Virus record (IMG/VR): IMGVR_UViG_3300020030_000027
Location: 1 to 6,469 of that record
From: a virus
Length of the DNA stretch: 6,469 nt
Strand: one strand, 5' to 3'
Of this stretch, positions 1 to 6,469 are shown one piece after another (position 1 is the first letter of the stretch; each line of letters starts with the position of its first letter). The position numbers and the translations under genes were made by a program. The notes below the pieces were generated by a model. That model ran no database searches, was not told the origin of the DNA, and saw nothing but the letters and a program-made list of their open reading frames with translations.

Positions 1-121
1 GCAGGAATGAATCCAGATTTAGCATACGGCAATGTTAATGGCACTGCTCCCGCTAGTCCTGGTATGACCTCCGGAGAACCCTCTCTACCTGTTGATTATT
101 CTGCTATTGCTGGAAAGCAAA
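1..121. repeat. Terminal direct repeat, copy 1 (identical to 6349-6469); over-read of a circular genome
   Basis: Base-by-base comparison shows 1-121 (gcaggaatgaatccag...ggaaagcaaa) is identical to 6349-6469. The repeat lies inside a continuous reading frame (VP2), as expected for a circular molecule written out linearly with overlap. Confidence 0.97.
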
Positions 122-900
122 CTATTGGTTCGGCTGTCTCCCAAGCCTTGTCGAATGAGCAAGCCCAAGCAAATATAGCTCTGACGCAGGCCCAAGAGAA
201 TAAAATGAACCAAGAAGCCGGAAAGATTTCGGAAGAAGCAAATGGTGTTCGTATTGATAATCTGACTAGAGGTGAATCCAATACTCTTGAAATTCAGCTT
301 AAACAAGGAGTTATTAAACTTAACGATTCAGTAAAACAACTGAACGAACAGAATAAGAAGAATTTACAACAACAGTTGGAGAATCTTAAATTGGAAAGTA
401 ATAATCTTGCTGAACAATGGCAGGTTATTCGTGAAACTTGGAGTAATCTAAGAGTAGATAAAGCTCTGAAAATGATTGATTTAAAATTTCGTGAAAAACA
501 GAATGTTTTTATTTTGAAAAAAATATCTAGCGAAACTAATCTCAATTATGTACAAGCTTCGTCTATGACAAAACGCCTTATGTTGGATATGGCTCTAGGA
601 AAGACGCAAATGAATCTTATGACCCAACAGGCAATTACTGAAACTCAAAAGCGTGTAAATATGCGTACTGAAGATTGGTATAACCGTGGTAAGATTCGAA
701 GTGTTTATTTACAAAATGGACAACTATCTTTTGATTTTAGTCAGTCTATTAAATGGGATGATACAATGAAATCTATTGATTGGTGCGAGAAATTCTGCCG
801 TTCAATATTCATGCTTACGCAGTCATTCCAAGGCGCTGCCTCTGGTTCTATACCAAAGGCAGGCGGCAATCCGTTTTACCCGCAAGGTGTGAATTGGTAA
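1..900 (+). CDS. VP2: DNA pilot / minor capsid protein VP2 (phiX174 H-like); 3' part of a junction-spanning gene whose true start is 6142
   Basis: The frame is open from base 1. The listed ORF 7-900 begins at an internal Met, and the same frame is open upstream from 6142 to 6348 on the circle. The motif NSPAAYRARLAAAGMNPDLAY spans the junction and matches my recollection of the conserved N-proximal motif of gokushovirus/alpavirus VP2 proteins. The middle part (about 259-450) is Q/N/L/E-rich and heptad-like, as expected for a coiled-coil pilot-tube protein. Third codon positions are T-rich. Stop TAA is at 898-900. Confidence 0.85.
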   Translation, partial: AGMNPDLAYGNVNGTAPASPGMTSGEPSLPVDYSAIAGKQTIGSAVSQALSNEQAQANIALTQAQENKMNQEAGKISEEANGVRIDNLTRGESNTLEIQLKQGVIKLNDSVKQLNEQNKKNLQQQLENLKLESNNLAEQWQVIRETWSNLRVDKALKMIDLKFREKQNVFILKKISSETNLNYVQASSMTKRLMLDMALGKTQMNLMTQQAITETQKRVNMRTEDWYNRGKIRSVYLQNGQLSFDFSQSIKWDDTMKSIDWCEKFCRSIFMLTQSFQGAASGSIPKAGGNPFYPQGVNW

Positions 901-1073: not shown

Positions 1074-2426
1074 ATGTATAATTTGTATTGTGAACACCCT
1101 GTTATTATTCGACATCCTCGTTTGAAGGATTTGTTACCTGTTTTTGGTTCGTATCGTACTCCTAACGGTTTGTATGATTTAACTCCATCCCAGTGTCATA
1201 CGTGGAAATATCGTTTTCCAGAGTGGTTATTTTCCGCTCGCAAGTGTGGCGTTACTCTTGATAATATTGATGATTTCCAAATCATTAATCTAAGAACTGG
1301 TGAGACTTCTCCTATGTTTATGGCTGTTCCATGTGGGAAATGTATTCTTTGCCGTGATAAGAAAAAGAGAGAATGGTCTTTTCGTGCCACATGTGAGAAT
1401 GTATTCTCTACTTCAATCCCTATTTTTGTGACCCTTACTTACAACAATAAACACCTCCCTAAACATGGTGTATTTAAAGAAGAGATACAACTCTTCATGA
1501 AACGTCTCCGCATTCGTTTAGATCGTCTAGGTTATAAACATCAGATAAGATATTTTTTCTGTTCTGAATATGGTTCTAAGTCTGGTAGGCCGCATTATCA
1601 TGCTATTTTTTGGAACTTTCCTCGTGATGGTGCTTTGGTTAACATTTGGAATGTCGTTAAGATGATTGAGAAAGCCTGGTCTTATAATGGTGAGCCCCTC
1701 GGATTTGCTTATGCCGTTTCTTGCGATAAAGGTGCTATTGGTTATGTGATGAAGTATATGTCTAAAATACCCCGCATTCCTGATAATATGAATAATGTGT
1801 TTTTTCTCTCATCTCGCAAAGATGGCGGAATAGGCGCTGCCTATGCTCGTCGTTTGATGCCATTTTATCGTGCTAATCCTCAATGTCTAGATATAACTGT
1901 TTGTGACCCTTATAGCGGTATGTCTACTACTGTTACTTTACCGGAATATTTTAAGCGTTTGTATTATCCTGCTAATTCTAGTGTATTATCTAAAGAAATC
2001 CGTGATGCGTTTAAAAAATTGTGTGATTGTATATCTGATAGGTATACTATTCATTGTGCCGGAAATTATATTGATAAGTTACGCTTCTCTGATATTGAAA
2101 AGAAAGTGCTTCGCAAGTATTCGTTTCTAAGTCCTAAGGTTTGTAAATATCCTATCGGTAAAAAGATGGATTATTATACTCAAATTCCTTGGCAGGCTCT
2201 CGATGATATATATGTTGCTAATGAGTGCGAAATAGCTTCCCTATGTCGGTTTCTTATGCTTGAAAGTATTGATACGACTTGGTTTGAAATTCGTGATGAA
2301 ATTTTACAAAAGCGGCAACGTGCTATAGATGTGCGTTTTTCCAATATGCAACCTATCAATATAAATGATGTTAAATACAGGAAATTAAATGCTCTAAAAC
2401 TTGCAGAATTAAGGGAAAAGGTATAA
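1074..2426 (+). CDS. VP4: Replication initiation protein VP4 (HUH rolling-circle endonuclease, Microviridae type)
   Basis: ORF of 450 aa. RCR motif I is FVTLTY (aa 118-123, nt 1425-1442). Motif II (HUH) is HYHAIF (aa 174-179, nt 1593-1610). Motif III is YVMKYMSK with the catalytic Tyr (aa 224-231, nt 1743-1766). The Cys cluster CGKCILCR (aa 87-94, nt 1332-1355) and the N-terminal C-x-x-P-V-I-I context are typical of microvirus VP4. Codon usage is T3-rich. Confidence 0.93.
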   Translation: MYNLYCEHPVIIRHPRLKDLLPVFGSYRTPNGLYDLTPSQCHTWKYRFPEWLFSARKCGVTLDNIDDFQIINLRTGETSPMFMAVPCGKCILCRDKKKREWSFRATCENVFSTSIPIFVTLTYNNKHLPKHGVFKEEIQLFMKRLRIRLDRLGYKHQIRYFFCSEYGSKSGRPHYHAIFWNFPRDGALVNIWNVVKMIEKAWSYNGEPLGFAYAVSCDKGAIGYVMKYMSKIPRIPDNMNNVFFLSSRKDGGIGAAYARRLMPFYRANPQCLDITVCDPYSGMSTTVTLPEYFKRLYYPANSSVLSKEIRDAFKKLCDCISDRYTIHCAGNYIDKLRFSDIEKKVLRKYSFLSPKVCKYPIGKKMDYYTQIPWQALDDIYVANECEIASLCRFLMLESIDTTWFEIRDEILQKRQRAIDVRFSNMQPININDVKYRKLNALKLAELREKV

Positions 2427-2454: not shown

Positions 2455-2628
2455 ATGAGTAAGCCTATATGTTATAATTGGATTTTACGTATTGTTGACC
2501 AAAATGGTGAACGGTATGAGAGTAGAATGGATTATACGTTAGCTAATATGCGTAAATGCTTGAATTTTTGGCGCTCTAAGCCTGGTGTTTTGAGTGTCTC
2601 TGCTTATAAACAATTTACTAATCTTTAA
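2455..2628 (+). CDS. Hypothetical small protein, 57 aa (below the ORF-track cutoff)
   Basis: Hand translation from ATG 2455 to TAA 2626-2628 gives MSKPICYNWILRIVDQNGERYESRMDYTLANMRKCLNFWRSKPGVLSVSAYKQFTNL. About half of the third positions are T, as in VP1 and VP4. It fills an otherwise empty gap after VP4 in a compact genome and has a net basic charge. I recognise no family. Confidence 0.45.
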   Translation: MSKPICYNWILRIVDQNGERYESRMDYTLANMRKCLNFWRSKPGVLSVSAYKQFTNL

Positions 2629-2644
2629 TGTTTCACGTGGAACA

Positions 2645-2878
2645 ATGGAAAAAAGAGTAATTTTAACTACATTACGTATTATGCGTAGGGCAACCTTAGA
2701 GCCTATTGTAGATATAAAACTAGGTGTGTTTGAACGTCCTTCACAGTCTGAAAAGATTCGTGCGTCTCTTGTGGAATCCAATCCGGATTTTATATTTTTG
2801 GCTAAACATGAAGAGTTATGTCCTAATTTATTTCCAGATGATGAAGATAACGCCCAATCAATGCATAGAAATAGTTAA
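2645..2878 (+). CDS. Hypothetical small protein, 77 aa (ATG start inside the listed 2594-2878 ORF)
   Basis: The listed 2594 start is GTG and would overlap the 57-aa ORF. The first ATG, at 2645, gives MEKRVILTTLRIMRRATLEP... with a basic N-terminal half and an acidic C-terminal tail (PDDEDNAQ). Third positions are T/A-rich. I recognise no family. Confidence 0.5.
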   Translation: MEKRVILTTLRIMRRATLEPIVDIKLGVFERPSQSEKIRASLVESNPDFIFLAKHEELCPNLFPDDEDNAQSMHRNS

Positions 2879-3038
2879 ACTTATTTCTACTTTCGTAATA
2901 GGTATTATTACTACTTTGTTTGTACAAAGTTGTACTTTGTCTCTTAGCGTTGCTAAGAATAATAATAACGCTACACAGAAAACCGAACAGACTTCGACTT
3001 CTAGTGTAGATAGTACTCATGTAAATTTATATCGTTAA
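2838..3038 (+). CDS. Small membrane / lipoprotein-like protein, 66 aa (candidate lysis or exclusion factor)
   Basis: ATG ATG at 2838-2843 lies in the frame of the listed 2724-3038 ORF, whose 2724 start is GTG. An alternative ATG is at 2808. The protein is MMKITPNQCIEIVKLISTFVIGIITTLFVQSCTLSLSVAKNNNNATQKTEQTSTSSVDSTHVNLYR. It has one hydrophobic helix, LISTFVIGIITTLFV (nt 2880-2924), followed by a lipobox-like VQSC (Cys at 2931-2933) and a polar N/T/S-rich tail. Third positions are T-rich. It is the only open frame across 2879-3038. Stop TAA at 3036-3038 is 2 nt before the VP1 ATG. Confidence 0.5.
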   Translation: MMKITPNQCIEIVKLISTFVIGIITTLFVQSCTLSLSVAKNNNNATQKTEQTSTSSVDSTHVNLYR

Positions 3039-3040
3039 TT

Positions 3041-5476
3041 ATGGCTAATGGTGCTTTTGATGCTACTTTAGATGTTAACAATGAGATTAAGGTTAACAAT
3101 TTTGATTGGTCTCACGCCAATAATCTGACTACTCAAATTGGTCGTGTTACTCCGGTGTTTTGTGAACTTGTTCCGGCTCATGGTTCGGTAAGAATCAATC
3201 CCCGATTCGGTTTGCAATTTATGCCTATGGTATTTCCTATTCAGACTCGTCTGCGTGCTCGTATGATGTTTTTTAAATATCCTCTCCGTGCCCTATGGGA
3301 TGGCTATCGAGATTTTGTAGGTAATTTCCGTGAAGATTTGGAAGAGCCCTATCTAGATTTGAATACATCGACCCGTCTTGATGCTATGGCAAAAACTGGT
3401 TCGCTTGGTGACTACTTAGGACTTCCTACTACTTTATTTGGTAAGTTTGGTACTACTATTTCGGTTAATACTACCGGACATATTTGGGGATTGAAAGGTA
3501 ACCAATTTAACGGTTCTGACCAAATGCAGTATGTTCCTAGTATTCCTATTGATTCAGTTTCTAATATACTTGCATTTTTAGGCTTAAGTCCTTCTCCTTC
3601 TGATACTCCCTCCGACCGTATTAGTTGGACTGTTCCTTCTCCGGGGTCTGCTTCTGCTAGTAATACCGTCAATATCGTACCCTATATTTCTGCTTCTGGT
3701 ATTGCTGGCTCTGATTCTATCACTGCTAATTCTCGTTTGGAATTTGATATACCTTGGAAACGCATTTCTAATCCTACTTCTGCCGATTTGACTGCGTTTA
3801 GCGAAGGCGCTGTTTCAGGATTTGCGAAGAAATCTAATTCTTATACACTATTGAATTTTATTCAAGCTACGTTCAATGCTGTTGATGGCGATAGATTTGT
3901 TAAGTTATTGTTCTCATTTCCGGAATCAATGTACGGTTCTACTACTGACGATTTTGAGTTTTTTTCATTCTTAAATTTATATTCTGCATTTGGTAGACGT
4001 ATTTCAGGAAATACTACTGCTTGGGGATTGCAAAATACTTCTCTTGGTCGTGCTTTTTTAGATATTCCTGATGGCGAGAAAACTACGGGTTTTCTTCTTC
4101 GAATATCTGATTTTGATTTAGCTGGTTCTGGAGCACAAGCTCATTATTATCTTACTGCTGATAAACCTGTTGATTTGACGCTTAATTCTTCGCCTTATTA
4201 TAATTCCGGTTCGTCAAATAAGGATAAACAGATTAAAATTTCTGCTTATTCATTCCGAGCTTATGAAGGTATTTATAACGCTTATATTCGTGATAATCGT
4301 AACAATCCTTATTATGTTAATGGACAAGTCCAGTATAACAAATGGATTCCTACTTATGATGGTGGTGCAGACCAGAATATTTATGAATTGCGTTACGCTA
4401 ACTGGGAAAAAGACTTCCTTACTACTGCTGTTCAATCTCCGCAACAAGGTACTGCACCTCTTGTAGGTATTACTACTTATACGGAAACGGTTGAAACAAC
4501 GTCTGACGATGGTACACCTGTTACTAGGGAATTATCTCGTATTGCTCTGGTAGATGAAGATGGTAAGAAATACCAGGTTTCATTTGATTCTGATTCCGAG
4601 GGTTTGAAAGGTGTATCTTACGTTGAACTTGATAATGAAGTTAAACTTCGTCAGCCTCGTAACCTGATAGATGTTGTAACGTCTGGTATTTCAATCAATG
4701 ATTTGCGTAATGTAAACGCATACCAAAAGTTTTTGGAGCTTAACATGCGCAAAGGGTATTCTTATCGTGATATTATTGAGGGTCGTTTTAACGTTAAAGT
4801 CCGCTATGATGAATTGTTGATGCCCGAATTTTTCGGCGGTTTCTCTCGTGATATTGAGATGCATTCTATCAGCCAGACCGTAGACCAAGACCTCAATGGC
4901 TCGCAGACTTATGCAAAGGCGTTAGGTTCTCAATCAGGTATTGCAGGTGTTCGTGGTGATTCTGGAAGAGCTCTTGAATGTTTCTGCGATGAAGAGAGTA
5001 TAGTTATGGGTATTTTGATTGTCACACCGTTGCCAGTGTATACACAATTGTTGCCTAAACACTTCACTTATCGAGGTTTGTTAGACCATTATCAGCCGGA
5101 GTTCAATCATATAGGATTCCAACCTATTTTGTACAAAGAAGTTTGTCCGTTACAAGCTTATAGCGACGGTCCTGACACTTTGTCCGATGTATTTGGCTAT
5201 AATAGACCGTGGTATGAGTATGTGCAAAAGTATGATCAGGCGCACGGATTATTCCGTACAAACTTGTCAAATTTCTTGATGCATCGTGTCTTTAATCATA
5301 AACCACAGCTTGCTCAATCATTTTTAGTTATTGACCCGGCTCAAGTAACCGACGTGTTTGCAGTGACGAAAGCGGATGACGGTACAGAGCTTACAGATAA
5401 GATATATGGTCAAATCTGGTTCGACTGTACGGCGAAATTGCCGATTAGCCGTGTCGCTATACCTCGGCTTGATTAG
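3041..5476 (+). CDS. VP1: Major capsid protein VP1 (phiX174 F-like jelly-roll), 811 aa
   Basis: The conserved Microviridae F/VP1 landmarks appear in the correct order. These are the N-terminal FDWSH...TTQIGRVTPV...ELVP; GDYLGLP (aa 123-129); SFRAYEGIYNAYIRDNR (aa 404-420); ISINDLRNVNAYQKFLELNMRKGYSYRDIIEGRFNV and PEFFGG (aa 550-600); and the C-terminal block WYEY...HGLF. The T3 codon bias is very strong. ATG is at 3041 and TAG at 5474-5476. Confidence 0.95.
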   Translation: MANGAFDATLDVNNEIKVNNFDWSHANNLTTQIGRVTPVFCELVPAHGSVRINPRFGLQFMPMVFPIQTRLRARMMFFKYPLRALWDGYRDFVGNFREDLEEPYLDLNTSTRLDAMAKTGSLGDYLGLPTTLFGKFGTTISVNTTGHIWGLKGNQFNGSDQMQYVPSIPIDSVSNILAFLGLSPSPSDTPSDRISWTVPSPGSASASNTVNIVPYISASGIAGSDSITANSRLEFDIPWKRISNPTSADLTAFSEGAVSGFAKKSNSYTLLNFIQATFNAVDGDRFVKLLFSFPESMYGSTTDDFEFFSFLNLYSAFGRRISGNTTAWGLQNTSLGRAFLDIPDGEKTTGFLLRISDFDLAGSGAQAHYYLTADKPVDLTLNSSPYYNSGSSNKDKQIKISAYSFRAYEGIYNAYIRDNRNNPYYVNGQVQYNKWIPTYDGGADQNIYELRYANWEKDFLTTAVQSPQQGTAPLVGITTYTETVETTSDDGTPVTRELSRIALVDEDGKKYQVSFDSDSEGLKGVSYVELDNEVKLRQPRNLIDVVTSGISINDLRNVNAYQKFLELNMRKGYSYRDIIEGRFNVKVRYDELLMPEFFGGFSRDIEMHSISQTVDQDLNGSQTYAKALGSQSGIAGVRGDSGRALECFCDEESIVMGILIVTPLPVYTQLLPKHFTYRGLLDHYQPEFNHIGFQPILYKEVCPLQAYSDGPDTLSDVFGYNRPWYEYVQKYDQAHGLFRTNLSNFLMHRVFNHKPQLAQSFLVIDPAQVTDVFAVTKADDGTELTDKIYGQIWFDCTAKLPISRVAIPRLD

Positions 5477-5567
5477 AAAATAGTTTTTCTTTTGTTTTTC
5501 CGACAATGCCTAAACTGCGCACTTTAGCCGGATTGCGTCAAGGGTTATTGTAGTAAAATATGTTAAA

Positions 5568-5593
5568 TGCGCGCGTGCGTTTCGCGCGTGCGT
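5568..5593. repeat. GC-rich tandem direct repeat (2 x 13 nt) that can also fold as a CGCGCG hairpin
   Basis: TGCGCGCGTGCGT (5568-5580) and TTCGCGCGTGCGT (5581-5593) differ at one position. CGCGCG 5570-5575 can pair with CGCGCG 5583-5588 across a 7-nt loop. The repeat is flanked by the inverted TTAAAT (5563-5568) and ATTTAA (5594-5599). A third copy of the octamer GCGTGCGT lies at 5721-5728. Confidence 0.8.
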
Positions 5594-5619
5594 ATTTAAT
5601 AGATTTTAGTACAATGTTC

Positions 5620-5651
5620 ATTGACCTTTCCGGATAAAGTACCTATCTTTG
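5620..5651 (+). promoter_or_regulatory. Candidate Bacteroidetes-type promoter (-7 TAnnTTTG with an upstream TTG)
   Basis: TATCTTTG at 5644-5651 matches the Bacteroides -7 consensus TAnnTTTG. ATTG at 5620-5623 lies 20 nt upstream, a partial match to the -33 TTTG. The position is suitable to drive ORF125-VP2-VP4. This is a motif match only. Confidence 0.3.
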
Positions 5652-5669
5652 CATTATCGTGAAAATTAA

Positions 5670-5722
5670 AGGGAAAGTATTTTCCCTCTGCGTGAAACGC
5701 AAATTAATAGCAACTCTGTTGC
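5670..5722 (+). other. Cluster of three closely spaced stem-loops in the long intergenic region
   Basis: Three hairpins: AGGGAAA-GTAT-TTTCCCT (5670-5687, 7 bp); TGCGT-GAA-ACGCA (5689-5701, 5 bp); GCAAC-TCT-GTTGC (5710-5722, 5 bp). GTGAAA recurs at 5659-5664, 5692-5697 and 5752-5757. Confidence 0.4.
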
Positions 5723-5764
5723 GTGCGTTAGGGATAGAGGCGAGTATCGGAGTGAAACGTAGAT

Positions 5765-6142
5765 ATGTTTGAGCCGGATAGCCCGCTCGAACGCTCAAAT
5801 TATAAATCTTTAAATTTTTTAATTATGGCACTTAGAAAATTGATTCCGCAAATTAATTCGGTTTCTTGCAAATTATCTTCAAAAGATATGCTTGTTACAA
5901 AACCGGATTTGGCGATTACGCCTAGTCAAGTCCAAGAATTAACGAATAAAGGTATTTCGGTGAGTTTGCCGAATGCAAAACAATTTTTGGACGGACATGC
6001 TATAGAAACGGCTAAGAGTTGGGACGTTGACCCTATATTTAAACGTGATGCAAATATTTGTACTATGTTTGAACTCGAAAGAGATTCTCAAGGCAAGATT
6101 ATTCGTGCCCATAAAGTTGACCGCAAAAAATTTGGTGATTAA
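5765..6142 (+). CDS. Hypothetical protein, 125 aa (105 aa if started at ATG 5825), translationally coupled to VP2; possible scaffolding-type protein
   Basis: ORF from ATG 5765 to TAA 6140-6142. The stop overlaps the VP2 start as TAATG (6140-6144). The alternative start 5825 sits in TTAATTATGGC (5819-5829), the same 11-mer that surrounds the VP1 start (3035-3045), so 5825 may be the real start (MALRKLIPQ...). I recognise no family with confidence. Confidence 0.6.
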   Translation: MFEPDSPLERSNYKSLNFLIMALRKLIPQINSVSCKLSSKDMLVTKPDLAITPSQVQELTNKGISVSLPNAKQFLDGHAIETAKSWDVDPIFKRDANICTMFELERDSQGKIIRAHKVDRKKFGD

Positions 6143-6469
6143 TGTACGGTTTAATTGGTGCGGCACTTGGCGCAATTTCCCAAAATTTTAATATCTCCGA
6201 ATCCATTGCAGCAAACAAGCAAGAACAACAGTCAAATCGTGATTACAATTTGAATCTTGCAAAGTTGCAAAATCAATGGAATCGTGAACAATGGGAAAGA
6301 GAAGCCCAATATAATTCACCTGCTGCGTACCGTGCCCGTCTTGCAGCGGCAGGAATGAATCCAGATTTAGCATACGGCAATGTTAATGGCACTGCTCCCG
6401 CTAGTCCTGGTATGACCTCCGGAGAACCCTCTCTACCTGTTGATTATTCTGCTATTGCTGGAAAGCAAA
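6142..6469 (+). CDS. VP2: DNA pilot / minor capsid protein VP2, 5' part (continues through the circle junction into 1-900)
   Basis: Hand translation from ATG 6142 gives MYGLIGAALGAISQNFNISESIAANKQEQQSNRDYNLNLAKLQNQWNREQWEREAQYNSPAAYRARLAAAGMNPDLAYGN..., with no stop up to the window end. The ORF track omits it because no stop occurs inside the window. Bases 6349-6469 duplicate 1-121 in the same frame. The full gene is 6142-6348 plus 1-900, which is 1107 nt and 368 aa. The N-terminus is hydrophobic and Gly/Ala-rich. Confidence 0.85.
   Translation, partial: MYGLIGAALGAISQNFNISESIAANKQEQQSNRDYNLNLAKLQNQWNREQWEREAQYNSPAAYRARLAAAGMNPDLAYGNVNGTAPASPGMTSGEPSLPVDYSAIAGKQ
6349..6469. repeat. Terminal direct repeat, copy 2 (identical to 1-121)
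   Basis: Exact 121-nt identity with the window start. See the copy 1 entry. Confidence 0.97.

Follow-up and report, generated by a model that had tools for sequence, protein, structure and literature searches.

Large insertions and variable loops in microvirus capsid proteins

In the mammalian gut, few phages are as abundant as microviruses. In the Bacteroidales-associated microviruses, treated as Alpavirinae by Krupovic & Forterre 2011 and Roux 2012 and as 'Family 5' by Kirchberger 2022, the major capsid protein (MCP, VP1) can reach 780 aa and carries large insertions at six hot spots, all mapped to outward-facing loops (Roux et al. 2012, PMC3394797). One of these, a 231-aa insertion in VP1 of Human_feces_B_007, was described as beta-rich and probably a domain of its own, for which databases offered no homologue and whose origin was obscure (PMC3394797).

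In SpV4 and the other solved microviruses, the subloops of the EF loop form the outer surface of the capsid, EF4 of SpV4 spanning aa 218-306 (PMC11281519). EF4 is hypervariable across Suborder III (PMC9239249), and in Ebor the three-fold protrusions, which are embedded in the MCP, bind LPS and mediate attachment (PMC11980548). In phiX174, residues 100-102 of the F protein take part in host recognition and lie on a raised ridge of the surface (PMC2935103). Here we describe a capsid protein in which a much larger element is found in the same loop, upstream of EF4.

Genome, host and affiliation of the phage

The window analysed in this study is the whole 6,469-nt stretch of the IMG/VR record IMGVR_UViG_3300020030_000027. 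Once its 121-nt terminal overlap is removed, it gives a circular genome of 6348 nt with the gene order VP1 (811 aa), a 105-aa ORF, VP2 (368 aa) and Rep (450 aa); the genome of BMV1 is 6.3 kb. As marks of the Alpavirinae we used Bacteroidales hosts, integrase-less proviruses with short direct repeats, and a genome of at least ~6 kb that encodes, besides VP1 and VP2, a long VP4 (Rep), long Rep genes having been noted in alpaviruses (Roux et al. 2012, PMC3394797). The genome is of this kind, exceeding ~6 kb and the size of gokushovirus genomes and carrying all three genes with a long Rep, while a Bacteroidales host is indicated by relatives at 55-64% MCP identity rather than by the window itself.

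Indeed, a search of genome contigs returned only three matches, all of them Bacteroides records. In the one labelled L042, cellular genes of a 3.7-Mb Bacteroides sp. f07 contig, NZ_BAABXI010000001.1, surround the MCP-to-Rep gene set at about 1.876-1.883 Mb, and the set is flanked by a 15-bp repeat, ATAATGATTATTCCC, whose copies are 6468 bp apart; no recombinase domain was found in the prophage stretch. This repeat has no match in the window at up to three mismatches. There is no 'Alpavirinae' node in the NCBI taxonomy, and our assignment of the phage as a Bacteroides-associated, Alpavirinae-type microvirus is made from host, genome size and gene order.

A 265-residue insertion in the early EF loop

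When we annotated the capsid gene, we distinguished the following features, all on the plus strand:

3041..5476, plus strand: major capsid protein (VP1/F) gene, 811 aa, identified by Pfam PF02305 Phage_F, PHROG 514 and 120 metagenomic homologues
3041..3427, plus strand: N-terminal core, aa 1-129, comprising the jelly-roll strands that precede the EF loop and having GDYLGLP at its end, aligned to 8des 29-141
3428..3451, plus strand: conserved entry linker TTLFGKFG, aa 130-137, with T130, T131, G134 and G137 invariant in 121 sequences
3452..4156, plus strand: hypervariable beta-rich domain, aa 138-372, predicted to fold independently, supported by AlphaFold2 (AF2), entropy, dN/dS and the lack of an outside homologue
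3497..3517, plus strand: conserved island GNQFNGS, aa 153-159, within the variable domain, with G153, N154 and G158 invariant in 121 sequences
3992..4024, plus strand: conserved island GRRISGNTTAW, aa 318-328, within the variable domain, with G318, R319, G323, T326 and W328 invariant
4157..4237, plus strand: clade-conserved exit linker DKPVDLTLNSSPYYNSGSSNKDKQIK, aa 373-399, recognised by BLAST alignment to relatives with other insert types
4238..4294, plus strand: ISAYSFRAYEGIYNAYIRD motif, aa 400-418, the first EF-loop helix, where homology to other microviruses restarts (matched by 8des 144-167 and, from its residue 139, by 9cgm)
4451..4678, plus strand: counterpart of EF4, the 'mushroom' loop of gokushoviruses, at aa ~471-546, in which query ~478-545 aligns to SpV4 9cgm ~225-305

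A mechanically called ORF of 86 aa on the minus strand (3412..3672) overlaps the insert; the assigned protein-coding genes are all on the plus strand.

The 811-aa product is a Microviridae major capsid protein. It matches Phage_F with 147.9 bits (cut-off 25) and the 'major head protein' profile PHROG 514 with an E value of 1.6e-86 (profile positions 20-515 of 531, covering aa 14-810), it has 120 full-length metagenomic homologues at 64-93% identity, and in the PDB phmmer recovers 8des (E 1.1e-21) and 9cgm (E 1.2e-10). The assembly index has no entry for the window's own MCP. The N-terminal core has a mean identity of 73-91% over the 120 relatives. The Phage_F match is split into two stretches, the better of which runs from aa 394 to 805 on profile positions 123-496.

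The last residue of GDYLGLP is aa 129 and the first of ISAYSFRAYEGIYNAYIRD is aa 400, so that window positions 3428-4237 encode aa 130-399 between them. When the protein was aligned by phmmer with the EC6098 MCP (8des), residues 19-131 matched 29-141 and residues 397-420 matched 144-167; since residues 131 and 397 correspond to 8des 141 and 144, the two motifs are 2 residues apart in EC6098 and 265 apart here. About 265 residues are thus inserted between two normally adjacent motifs, as an earlier note made from this DNA, which put the block at about 270 aa, had proposed, and the split profile match agrees with this. The note had credited the block with most of the excess length of the protein; in fact the protein is 245 aa longer than its 566-aa EC6098 counterpart, and the insert explains all of this. 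In distant microviruses that lack the insert (genomes of 4.2-5.3 kb), query residue ~398 aligns ~137-153 codons into the MCP gene.

The insert falls between 8des 141 and 144, before 9cgm 139, and upstream of the FRAY..IYN helix, which AF2 predicts at aa 402-416 within the ISAYSFRAYEGIYNAYIRD motif. This motif anchors to phiX174 F 116-133, and by alignment the insertion site corresponds to phiX174 F ~112-118, ~10 residues after F100-102. The alignments thus place the insertion site in the early EF loop, distinct from the EF4 three-fold loop. The insert is not the three-fold 'mushroom' insertion of gokushoviruses, being upstream of EF4, whose equivalent is present and conserved in the clade (mean entropy 0.45 bits).

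The block had also been described as rich in Ser, Thr, Gly and Pro. The description fits in part, Ser making up 13.8% of the insert vs 6.0% of the rest of the protein and S+T+G+P 36% vs 24%, and SPSPSDTPSD and PSPGSASASN both lie inside it; however, the block is not of low complexity and contains no tandem or direct repeats. Its folded variable part (aa ~138-372, window 3452-4156) is framed by the two linkers. The pattern of the entry linker, TT.[VF]G.[YF]G, is retained even where the inserts of relatives cannot be aligned, and only in the exit linker DKPVDLTLNSSPYYNSGSSNKDKQIK, which is absent from gokushoviruses, does BLAST align the insert with relatives that carry other insert types (52-77% identity).

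Predicted fold of the domain and search for relatives

Modelled alone by AlphaFold2 (residues 135-372), the domain reached a pLDDT of 91.1 and a pTM of 0.87, the five models all lying between 88 and 91. The model is compact and mostly beta, with ~17 predicted strands and a mass of 27 kDa. In a run on the full-length protein the domain again had a pLDDT of ~90 and the exit linker one below 60; the core was left unfolded (pLDDT 20-30), an effect of the near-invariance of that region in the 121-sequence alignment. These models support the view that the insert is an autonomous, folded beta-rich domain, separate from the ordinary jelly-roll strands.

No homologue outside microvirus MCPs was found when the 270-aa block was compared by phmmer with 1.84 billion representative sequences, the seven matches consisting of five short MCP-fragment-like sequences and two repetitive junk translations. 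A profile built from 14 diverse inserts matched neither PDB sequences nor Pfam, where no family had an E value below 0.07. Foldseek searches of the full-length model against the PDB, and of the domain model against the PDB and BFVD, gave nothing at E <= 1e-3, with TMq <= 0.30. No significant match to a CBM- or lectin-like beta-sandwich was found in the PDB, where the best CBM-like Foldseek matches, 4c8x, 8jiy and 1of4, had E values of 0.05-0.06, TMq of 0.16-0.27 and rmsd of 13-15 A; the sub-threshold cluster of CBM, ephrin-receptor and Cry-toxin beta-sandwiches, with TM <= 0.30, does not count as evidence. An internal duplication was rejected, as hhalign of the two halves gave a probability of 0.2%. 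The domain is possibly a new protein fold. The receptor- or glycan-binding activity that the earlier note had suggested for it finds no backing in Pfam, in the PDB or in a significant Foldseek match.

Comparison with described capsid elements

Large beta-rich orphan insertions in Alpavirinae VP1 have been known since 2012 (PMC3394797), and the insert described here is a better-characterised example. That class comprises insertions of >15 aa relative to BMV5 VP1 that are beta-rich, likely independent domains and without database homologues; the present insert belongs to it by size (~245-265 aa), by fold (~17 strands, pLDDT 91) and as an orphan, and shares the association with the gut and with Bacteroidales. 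What is new beyond the 2012 description is a confidently predicted fold, variability that has shifted from EF4 to the early EF site, the dN/dS contrasts, and the occurrence of several mutually unalignable insert types on close cores. The earlier note had overstated the novelty of host recognition embedded in the capsid, which is established for the EF4 protrusions of Ebor (PMC11980548).

Like the EF4 loop of gokushoviruses and Ebor, the insert is embedded in the MCP, hypervariable and within the EF loop, with surface exposure presumed in its case. In contrast to EF4, which is a flexible trimerising loop of ~55-90 aa, it is a predicted globular domain of ~235 aa, and the EF4 equivalent of the present protein is a different subloop, ~80 residues downstream. 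The variability is also reversed, EF4 being conserved here (0.45 bits) and the new domain variable (1.79 bits). In phiX174 F the corresponding site adjoins residues that affect attachment (PMC2935103), but there single residues are involved and no domain is present. The phiX174 G protein is also beta-rich (Roux et al. 2012, PMC3394797), but it is a protein of its own, a pentamer at the 5-fold axes, and no G chain was among the top 50 Foldseek PDB matches listed.

The resemblance to certain unrelated capsids is one of analogy only, as shell folds and lineages are different and no similarity of sequence or structure was detected. The I-domain of the P22 coat protein and the P domains of tombus-, calici- and hepeviruses are autonomous beta domains built into or attached to a shell fold, each subunit displaying one.

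Variability, selection and turnover at the site

Comparison with related genomes showed the hypervariability that the earlier note had put forward as a check. Mean entropy over aa 132-377 is 1.79 bits vs 0.30 in the core, and 70-87% of the amino acid differences between the window's MCP and those of its 13 closest relatives fall within the insert, which is 30% of the protein. The insert is also where nucleotide identity along the genome is lowest in comparisons with L004 and L045. In 16 codon-aligned pairs covering three insert types, dN/dS over aa ~132-377 was 0.36-0.50 vs 0.02-0.09 in the core, with similar dS. The domain is thus shown to be the most variable and fastest-evolving stretch of the genome, still under purifying selection. 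Since mean omega is below 1, positive selection is not demonstrated, and relaxed constraint would yield equal averages.

For the pair formed by the window and L004, the insert has a dN of 0.104 vs 0.010 and a dS of 0.285 vs 0.06-0.14, and recombination may have acted in this pair; we rejected a raised rate of mutation or recombination in the insert as a general effect, as the 15 other pairs have similar dS in insert and core. Within the domain, entropy is 1.91 bits in predicted strands vs 1.59 bits in coil, and strands are thus as variable as coil, unlike the usual arrangement in which a conserved scaffold carries the variable tips. Two islands stand out against this background. GNQFNGS is found in the insert-family members L004, L009, L010 and L042; GRRISGNTTAW occurs in degenerate forms in L043, L016 and L017, is missing from the short insert types, and could be a shell contact or a functional site.

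An insert is present in every relative examined in the clade. The distance from motif to motif gives 186-279 aa in 25 of 25 loci, and no relative in the clade is without it; the variable parts, 159-252 aa long, share one site, and several insert types are mutually unalignable. The types include one of ~250 aa in the window and L004, one of 193 aa in L024 and one of 171 aa in L023. The insert profile matches the Bacteroides sp. f07 prophage with an E value of 3e-48 and does not match L003, L023, L024, L027-30 or L040, though the cores of these are 72-77% identical, and on the core tree they are interleaved with members of the insert family. In L032, the insert contains a 10-aa tandem duplication. 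As read from these alignments, the inserts at this one site in close relatives have either diverged past recognition or been replaced.

Probable surface placement, proposed function and alternatives

From the position in the EF loop, we infer that the domain is displayed at the capsid surface, and all 60 copies would then lie outside the T=1 shell as an added outer layer or as turrets. The opposite orientation, with the domain facing inwards as a built-in scaffold or a DNA-binding module for assembly or packaging, could draw on the fact that the clade's only candidates for scaffold and DNA-binding proteins are small unassigned ORFs. We consider it very improbable, given an insertion point in a loop that is external in all solved microviruses, a slightly acidic domain (net charge about -5; K+R 6.6%, D+E 8.5%) unsuited to binding ssDNA, and a hypervariability atypical of internal assembly interfaces; moreover, by our estimate 60 x 27 kDa would take up a large share of an interior that already packs 6.3 kb. 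That the insert is an artefact, whether from mis-assembly, from a frame error or as a chimeric ORF, or that its variation is made by a diversity-generating retroelement, is scarcely credible. The same architecture of 797-814 aa recurs across over 120 independent assemblies as well as in the prophage of the 3.7-Mb Bacteroides contig, and the gene is one unbroken ORF with conserved flanks. As for a retroelement, no ORF has a reverse transcriptase domain (Pfam, PHROG), and we found no template/variable repeat pair, no tandem repeats and no direct repeat of at least 30 nt in the genome.

The block is an extra domain of ~235 residues, carried by the single-jelly-roll coat protein in the opening part of its EF surface loop. 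In the mechanism that we propose, it would bind a variable surface structure of Bacteroides (for example capsular polysaccharide, LPS or an outer-membrane protein). Point substitutions, indels and probably also exchange by recombination would diversify it as phage and host compete in an arms race, and the conserved EF4 three-fold loop probably retains a constant function, be it in trimer contacts or as a trigger of capsid opening. We rate at about even the chance that this domain, displayed on the shell, is chiefly responsible for adsorption and host specificity; in the literature searched, no Alpavirinae isolate has a known receptor. A stronger version, in which the host-range determinant was relocated from EF4 to an exchangeable cassette of orphan domains, unrelated between lineages whose shells are near-identical and swapped by recombination to track Bacteroides surfaces, is possible and we hold it only tentatively.

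The same variability would look different if the domain were a surface decoration or shield with no role in receptor binding, stabilising the shell, masking it from the gut (proteases, bile, secretory IgA) or tethering it to mucus, its variation then coming from immune or environmental pressure, or its bulk alone mattering. Insertions in gut microviruses have been proposed to cope with gut-specific factors (Roux et al. 2012, PMC3394797), variation that extends over the whole domain, strands included, would fit a demand for any fold-compatible sequence, unrelated variable parts of widely differing length are tolerated at the site, and no lectin-like match emerged from Foldseek, Pfam or the PDB. 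However, this explanation leaves unaccounted for both the main hot spot of divergence between near-identical genomes and the invariant islands GNQFxGS and GRRISGNxTAW, and the hypervariable surface elements of the MCP in microviruses studied so far are adsorption elements (PMC11980548, PMC2935103); we regard it as rather unlikely, if worth keeping in view. A largely dispensable passenger, expanded or captured in a permissive loop and drifting under weak constraint with no specific function, would be expected to show a raised omega, inserts that are unalignable in sister lineages, ongoing indels such as the duplication in L032, and a domain that is an orphan in both sequence and fold, all of which we observe. 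Yet omega stays below 1 in a confidently folded domain, which speaks for purifying selection, and every relative examined has kept ~700 nt, never lost, in a packaging-limited genome of 6.3 kb, so that we give this possibility little weight.

Significance

For practical purposes, aa 130-400 should be masked in MCP clustering and in primer or HMM design for this clade, and the domain could serve as a marker for strain-level typing in viromes. A 27-kDa, confidently predicted domain that is carried by every coat subunit and holds most of the strain-level variation is an obvious candidate for host specificity. The locus offers an example of a minimal ssDNA virus evolving a new loop domain that then undergoes fast turnover, and the relocated cassette, if true, would give a T=1 coat protein its own modular system for receptor binding.

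Genome organization and relatives

The window is a complete circular microvirus genome of 6348 nt once the 121-nt end overlap is removed: positions 1-121 and 6349-6469 are identical and represent an assembly overlap, of the same kind as those of the related loci L004 (79 nt) and L045 (141 nt). All recognisable genes lie on the + strand.

Genes and ORFs of the genome (window coordinates)
1074..2426, + strand: rolling-circle Rep, 450 aa (PF23343)
2455-3038, + strand: three small overlapping ORFs (57, 94 and 104 aa) separating Rep from the MCP gene; none matches Pfam or PHROG
3041..5476, + strand: MCP, 811 aa (Pfam Phage_F, 147.9 bits; PHROG 514)
5765..6142, + strand: small ORF downstream of the MCP gene and upstream of VP2; no Pfam or PHROG match
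6142-6469 continuing at 122-900, + strand: pilot-like VP2, 368 aa, spanning the contig junction, start ATG at 6142; no Pfam or PHROG match

The VP2 start codon shares 1 nt with the stop codon of the ORF before it, and the protein has the length of the one called in L045; the ORF listed at 7..900 is a truncated reading of this gene. For the ORF upstream of VP2 an internal Met is the probable start, and its product would then have 105 aa, the same as in L045. Where the window has its three small ORFs, L045 has called genes of 57, 77 and 66 aa. The 104-aa ORF contains the hydrophobic stretch LISTFVIGIITTLFV and could encode a lysis or membrane protein.

The intergenic region 3′ of the MCP gene (5477-5764) holds an imperfect hairpin of about 120 nt (5521-5640, apex repeat CGCGCGTGCGT) with a single-stranded DNA minimum free energy of -36.6 kcal/mol (z = -8.6), and none of 200 shuffled sequences folded as well. 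Similarity to GenBank microviruses at the megablast level was confined to 5437-5829 (75-84% identity), and Rfam gave no match across the entire window. A complementary-strand origin is one possible role for the hairpin; a site of packaging or recombination is another.

Among GenBank records, the closest are unclassified microviruses with genomes of 6.0-6.9 kb from faeces of rodents, tortoise, pig, dog and chicken. When 185,579 species genomes were searched, the only matches were three Bacteroides records. In Bacteroides sp. f07, a 6.5-kb MCP-to-Rep gene set (L042 5092-11574; NZ_BAABXI010000001.1) encoding an MCP of 788 aa, a 105-aa ORF, a VP2 of 340 aa and a Rep of 460 aa lies between cellular genes on a 3.7-Mb contig, with a gyrA/TPR gene pair on one side and a Usp-family gene on the other. 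A 15-bp direct repeat, ATAATGATTATTCCC, stands on either side of it, the copies being 6468 bp apart; even with 3 mismatches allowed, no match to this repeat was found in the window. No recombinase domain was found within the L042 stretch. This arrangement agrees with integration of the XerCD/dif type, as put forward for microviruses of Bacteroidetes. The host, the size and gene order of the genome, the long Rep and lysogeny without an integrase all match the Bacteroidetes-associated microviruses (Alpavirinae; PMC3091885, PMC3394797).

Insertion site and predicted fold

The observation in the earlier note holds: of two motifs that are normally adjacent in the capsid protein, GDYLGLP has its last residue at aa 129 and ISAYSFRAYEGIYNAYIRD its first at aa 400, so that window 3428-4237 corresponds to aa 130-399. 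When we compared the protein with PDB sequences using phmmer, residues 19-131 aligned with 29-141 and residues 397-420 with 144-167 of the gokushovirus EC6098 MCP (8des), that is, about 265 residues here against two in the solved structure. The alignment with SpV4 VP1 (9cgm) restarts at its residue 139, equivalent to our residue 394, and in phiX174 F the FLG motif occupies 109-111 and the LFQGYLNIYNNYF helix 120-133. The insert, which directly precedes the first EF-loop helix, sits at what we take to be the end of subloop EF1. Distant microviruses with genomes of 4.2-5.3 kb are without it. The nearest 40 or so GenBank relatives, with MCP genes of 2.1-2.4 kb, aligned by tblastn in two pieces covering 60-73% of the query; they carry a sequence of similar size at this site that tblastn cannot align.

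Conserved borders, an entry stub (TTLFGKFG, aa 130-137) and an exit linker (aa 373-399, DKPVDLTLNSSPYYNS.S.NKDKQIK) that is kept even where the insert body of relatives is unrelated, enclose a variable body (aa 138-372). Within the body, GNQFxGS (153-159), P169, P201/A204, N312 and GRRISGNxTAW (318-328) form invariant islands. The insert is rich in serine (13.8% vs 6.0%), slightly acidic and not repetitive, with no internal duplication.

AlphaFold2 on aa 130-385 alone gave a confident model of about 17 beta strands and a few short helices (mean pLDDT 91.1, pTM 0.87; all five models 88-91). The insert is thus predicted to be a folded domain, and this model refutes its reading as ordinary jelly-roll strands as well as that as a disordered S/T-rich linker. 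In the full-length run, based on an alignment of the protein with 120 metagenomic homologues, residues ~138-372 again reached a pLDDT of about 90 while the jelly-roll core stayed unfolded (20-30), because its columns are near-invariant in this shallow alignment and give no covariation signal; the low values are a property of an alignment of 121 close homologues and not disorder.

A search of 1.84 billion cluster representatives with the 270-aa block retrieved only five short MCP-fragment-like sequences and two repetitive junk translations, and a 14-sequence insert profile had no match in PDB sequences or Pfam. Foldseek found no neighbour of the domain model in PDB or BFVD at E <= 1e-3 (best query-normalised TM 0.30), nor any of the full-length model in PDB; weak CBM-like matches were not counted as evidence. 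The domain is therefore an orphan among the databases searched, and the model leaves a new fold as a possibility.

Variability and turnover of the insert

Hypervariability of the block is evident from the alignment with 120 full-length homologues from metagenomes, at 64-93% identity: averaged over 30-residue blocks, identity was 0.22-0.62 in aa 121-390 and 0.73-0.99 elsewhere, and entropy was 1.79 bits in aa 132-377, against 0.30 for the core and 0.45 for the EF4 equivalent (aa ~471-546). In 16 codon-aligned pairs representing three insert types, dS was alike in insert and core while dN was 6- to 30-fold higher in the insert, giving an omega of 0.36-0.50 vs 0.02-0.09. This 30% of the protein holds 70-87% of the MCP amino-acid differences to the 13 closest relatives. 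It is also the most diverged stretch of the genome relative to L004 and L045 (79-91% nucleotide identity, against ~94-98% over most of the remainder).

Lesser dips relative to the same two near-identical genomes (81-88% vs ~95% elsewhere) were seen at ~693-893 (VP2 C-terminus), ~2293-2426 (Rep C-terminus) and ~5641-5840 (intergenic), and the C-terminal part of the pilot protein may co-vary with the capsid insert.

With the insert profile, members of the same family were recognised in the window's own subclade and, at E 3e-48, in the Bacteroides sp. f07 prophage. In L043, L016, L017-19 and L032 the profile detected only weak, collinear remnants, and in L003, L023, L024, L027-30 and L040 nothing; this last group has 72-77% identical cores and variable insert parts of 159-193 aa. 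On a core-only NJ tree the unmatched types are interleaved with members of the insert family, which implies either very fast divergence with indels or recombinational replacement at the site. Indel change is still under way in L032, otherwise near-identical to L017-L019, whose insert carries a perfect 10-aa tandem duplication (FSSFRDKYFT x2, aa ~190-210 of the insert).

Position on the capsid and proposed function

The insert is not the gokushovirus EF4 'mushroom', which in SpV4 comprises aa 218-306 (PMC11281519), corresponding to our residues ~478-545; it lies about 80 residues upstream of the EF4 equivalent, after the conserved (D)YLGxP motif. Within the conserved EF4 equivalent, MCP aa 475-532 (window 4463-4636) match Pfam DUF1093 below threshold (E 0.0037, 18.3 bits vs a cut-off of 26.3), and the full-length, low-confidence model predicts a beta meander of four strands for the loop.

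Apart from EF4, the EF subloops of SpV4 lie on the outer surface round the 2-fold axis, and EF1 is one of those whose structure differs most from one subfamily to another (PMC11281519). In phiX174 numbering the site falls at F ~112-118, ten residues past F100-F102, residues of a raised surface ridge with a direct effect on attachment, and adjoining F115, which is listed as lying at or close to an F-F contact (PMC2935103). Large alpavirus insertions were all mapped to outward-facing loops by Roux et al. 2012 (PMC3394797). From the EF-loop position, the phiX174 site, this mapping, the acidic composition and a simple volume argument, external display of the domain appears well motivated, and an internal role very improbable.

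Sixty external copies would then provide the primary contact with the Bacteroides surface and determine strain specificity. Anchorage of the domain to the shell would fall to its conserved linkers and internal islands, and the conserved EF4 loop would retain an invariant role; we give this reading about an even chance. A precedent exists in phage Ebor, in which protrusions of the MCP bind LPS and bring a penton into position for opening (PMC11980548). A decoration or shield with no receptor function, which would be displayed in the same way, is a less likely candidate. That the domain is a weakly constrained passenger is unlikely: its omega exceeds that of the core, but omega below 1, and an insert kept by all the relatives examined, point to a folded domain with a function. 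An artefact, or variation driven by a DGR, we reject. The reading in the earlier note is supported in part: the analysis shows a domain that is inserted, folded and hypervariable, while its surface display and recognition of the host we infer.

Relation to earlier work

Large alpavirus VP1 insertions are already known as a phenomenon. Roux et al. 2012 described alpavirus VP1 of up to 780 aa with six insertion hot spots, including in Human_feces_B_007 an insertion of 231 aa, beta-rich, probably autonomous and without homologues (PMC3394797), much like the insert studied here in being large, beta-rich and homologue-less. Krupovic & Forterre 2011 noted an alpavirus-specific 14-aa insertion not present in gokushoviruses, and Kirchberger et al. 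2022 treated hypervariability within VP1 as typical of the suborder as a whole and equated the variable regions with the EF4 protrusion (PMC9239249). The literature searched contained no paper on receptor binding or structure of any Alpavirinae virion. Our analysis adds the exact insert site, distinct from EF4, an orphan fold predicted with high confidence, numbers for how variability has moved from EF4 into the insert domain, and several unalignable insert types on near-identical shells. The domain is no conceptual surprise but a good target for experiments on structure and host range.
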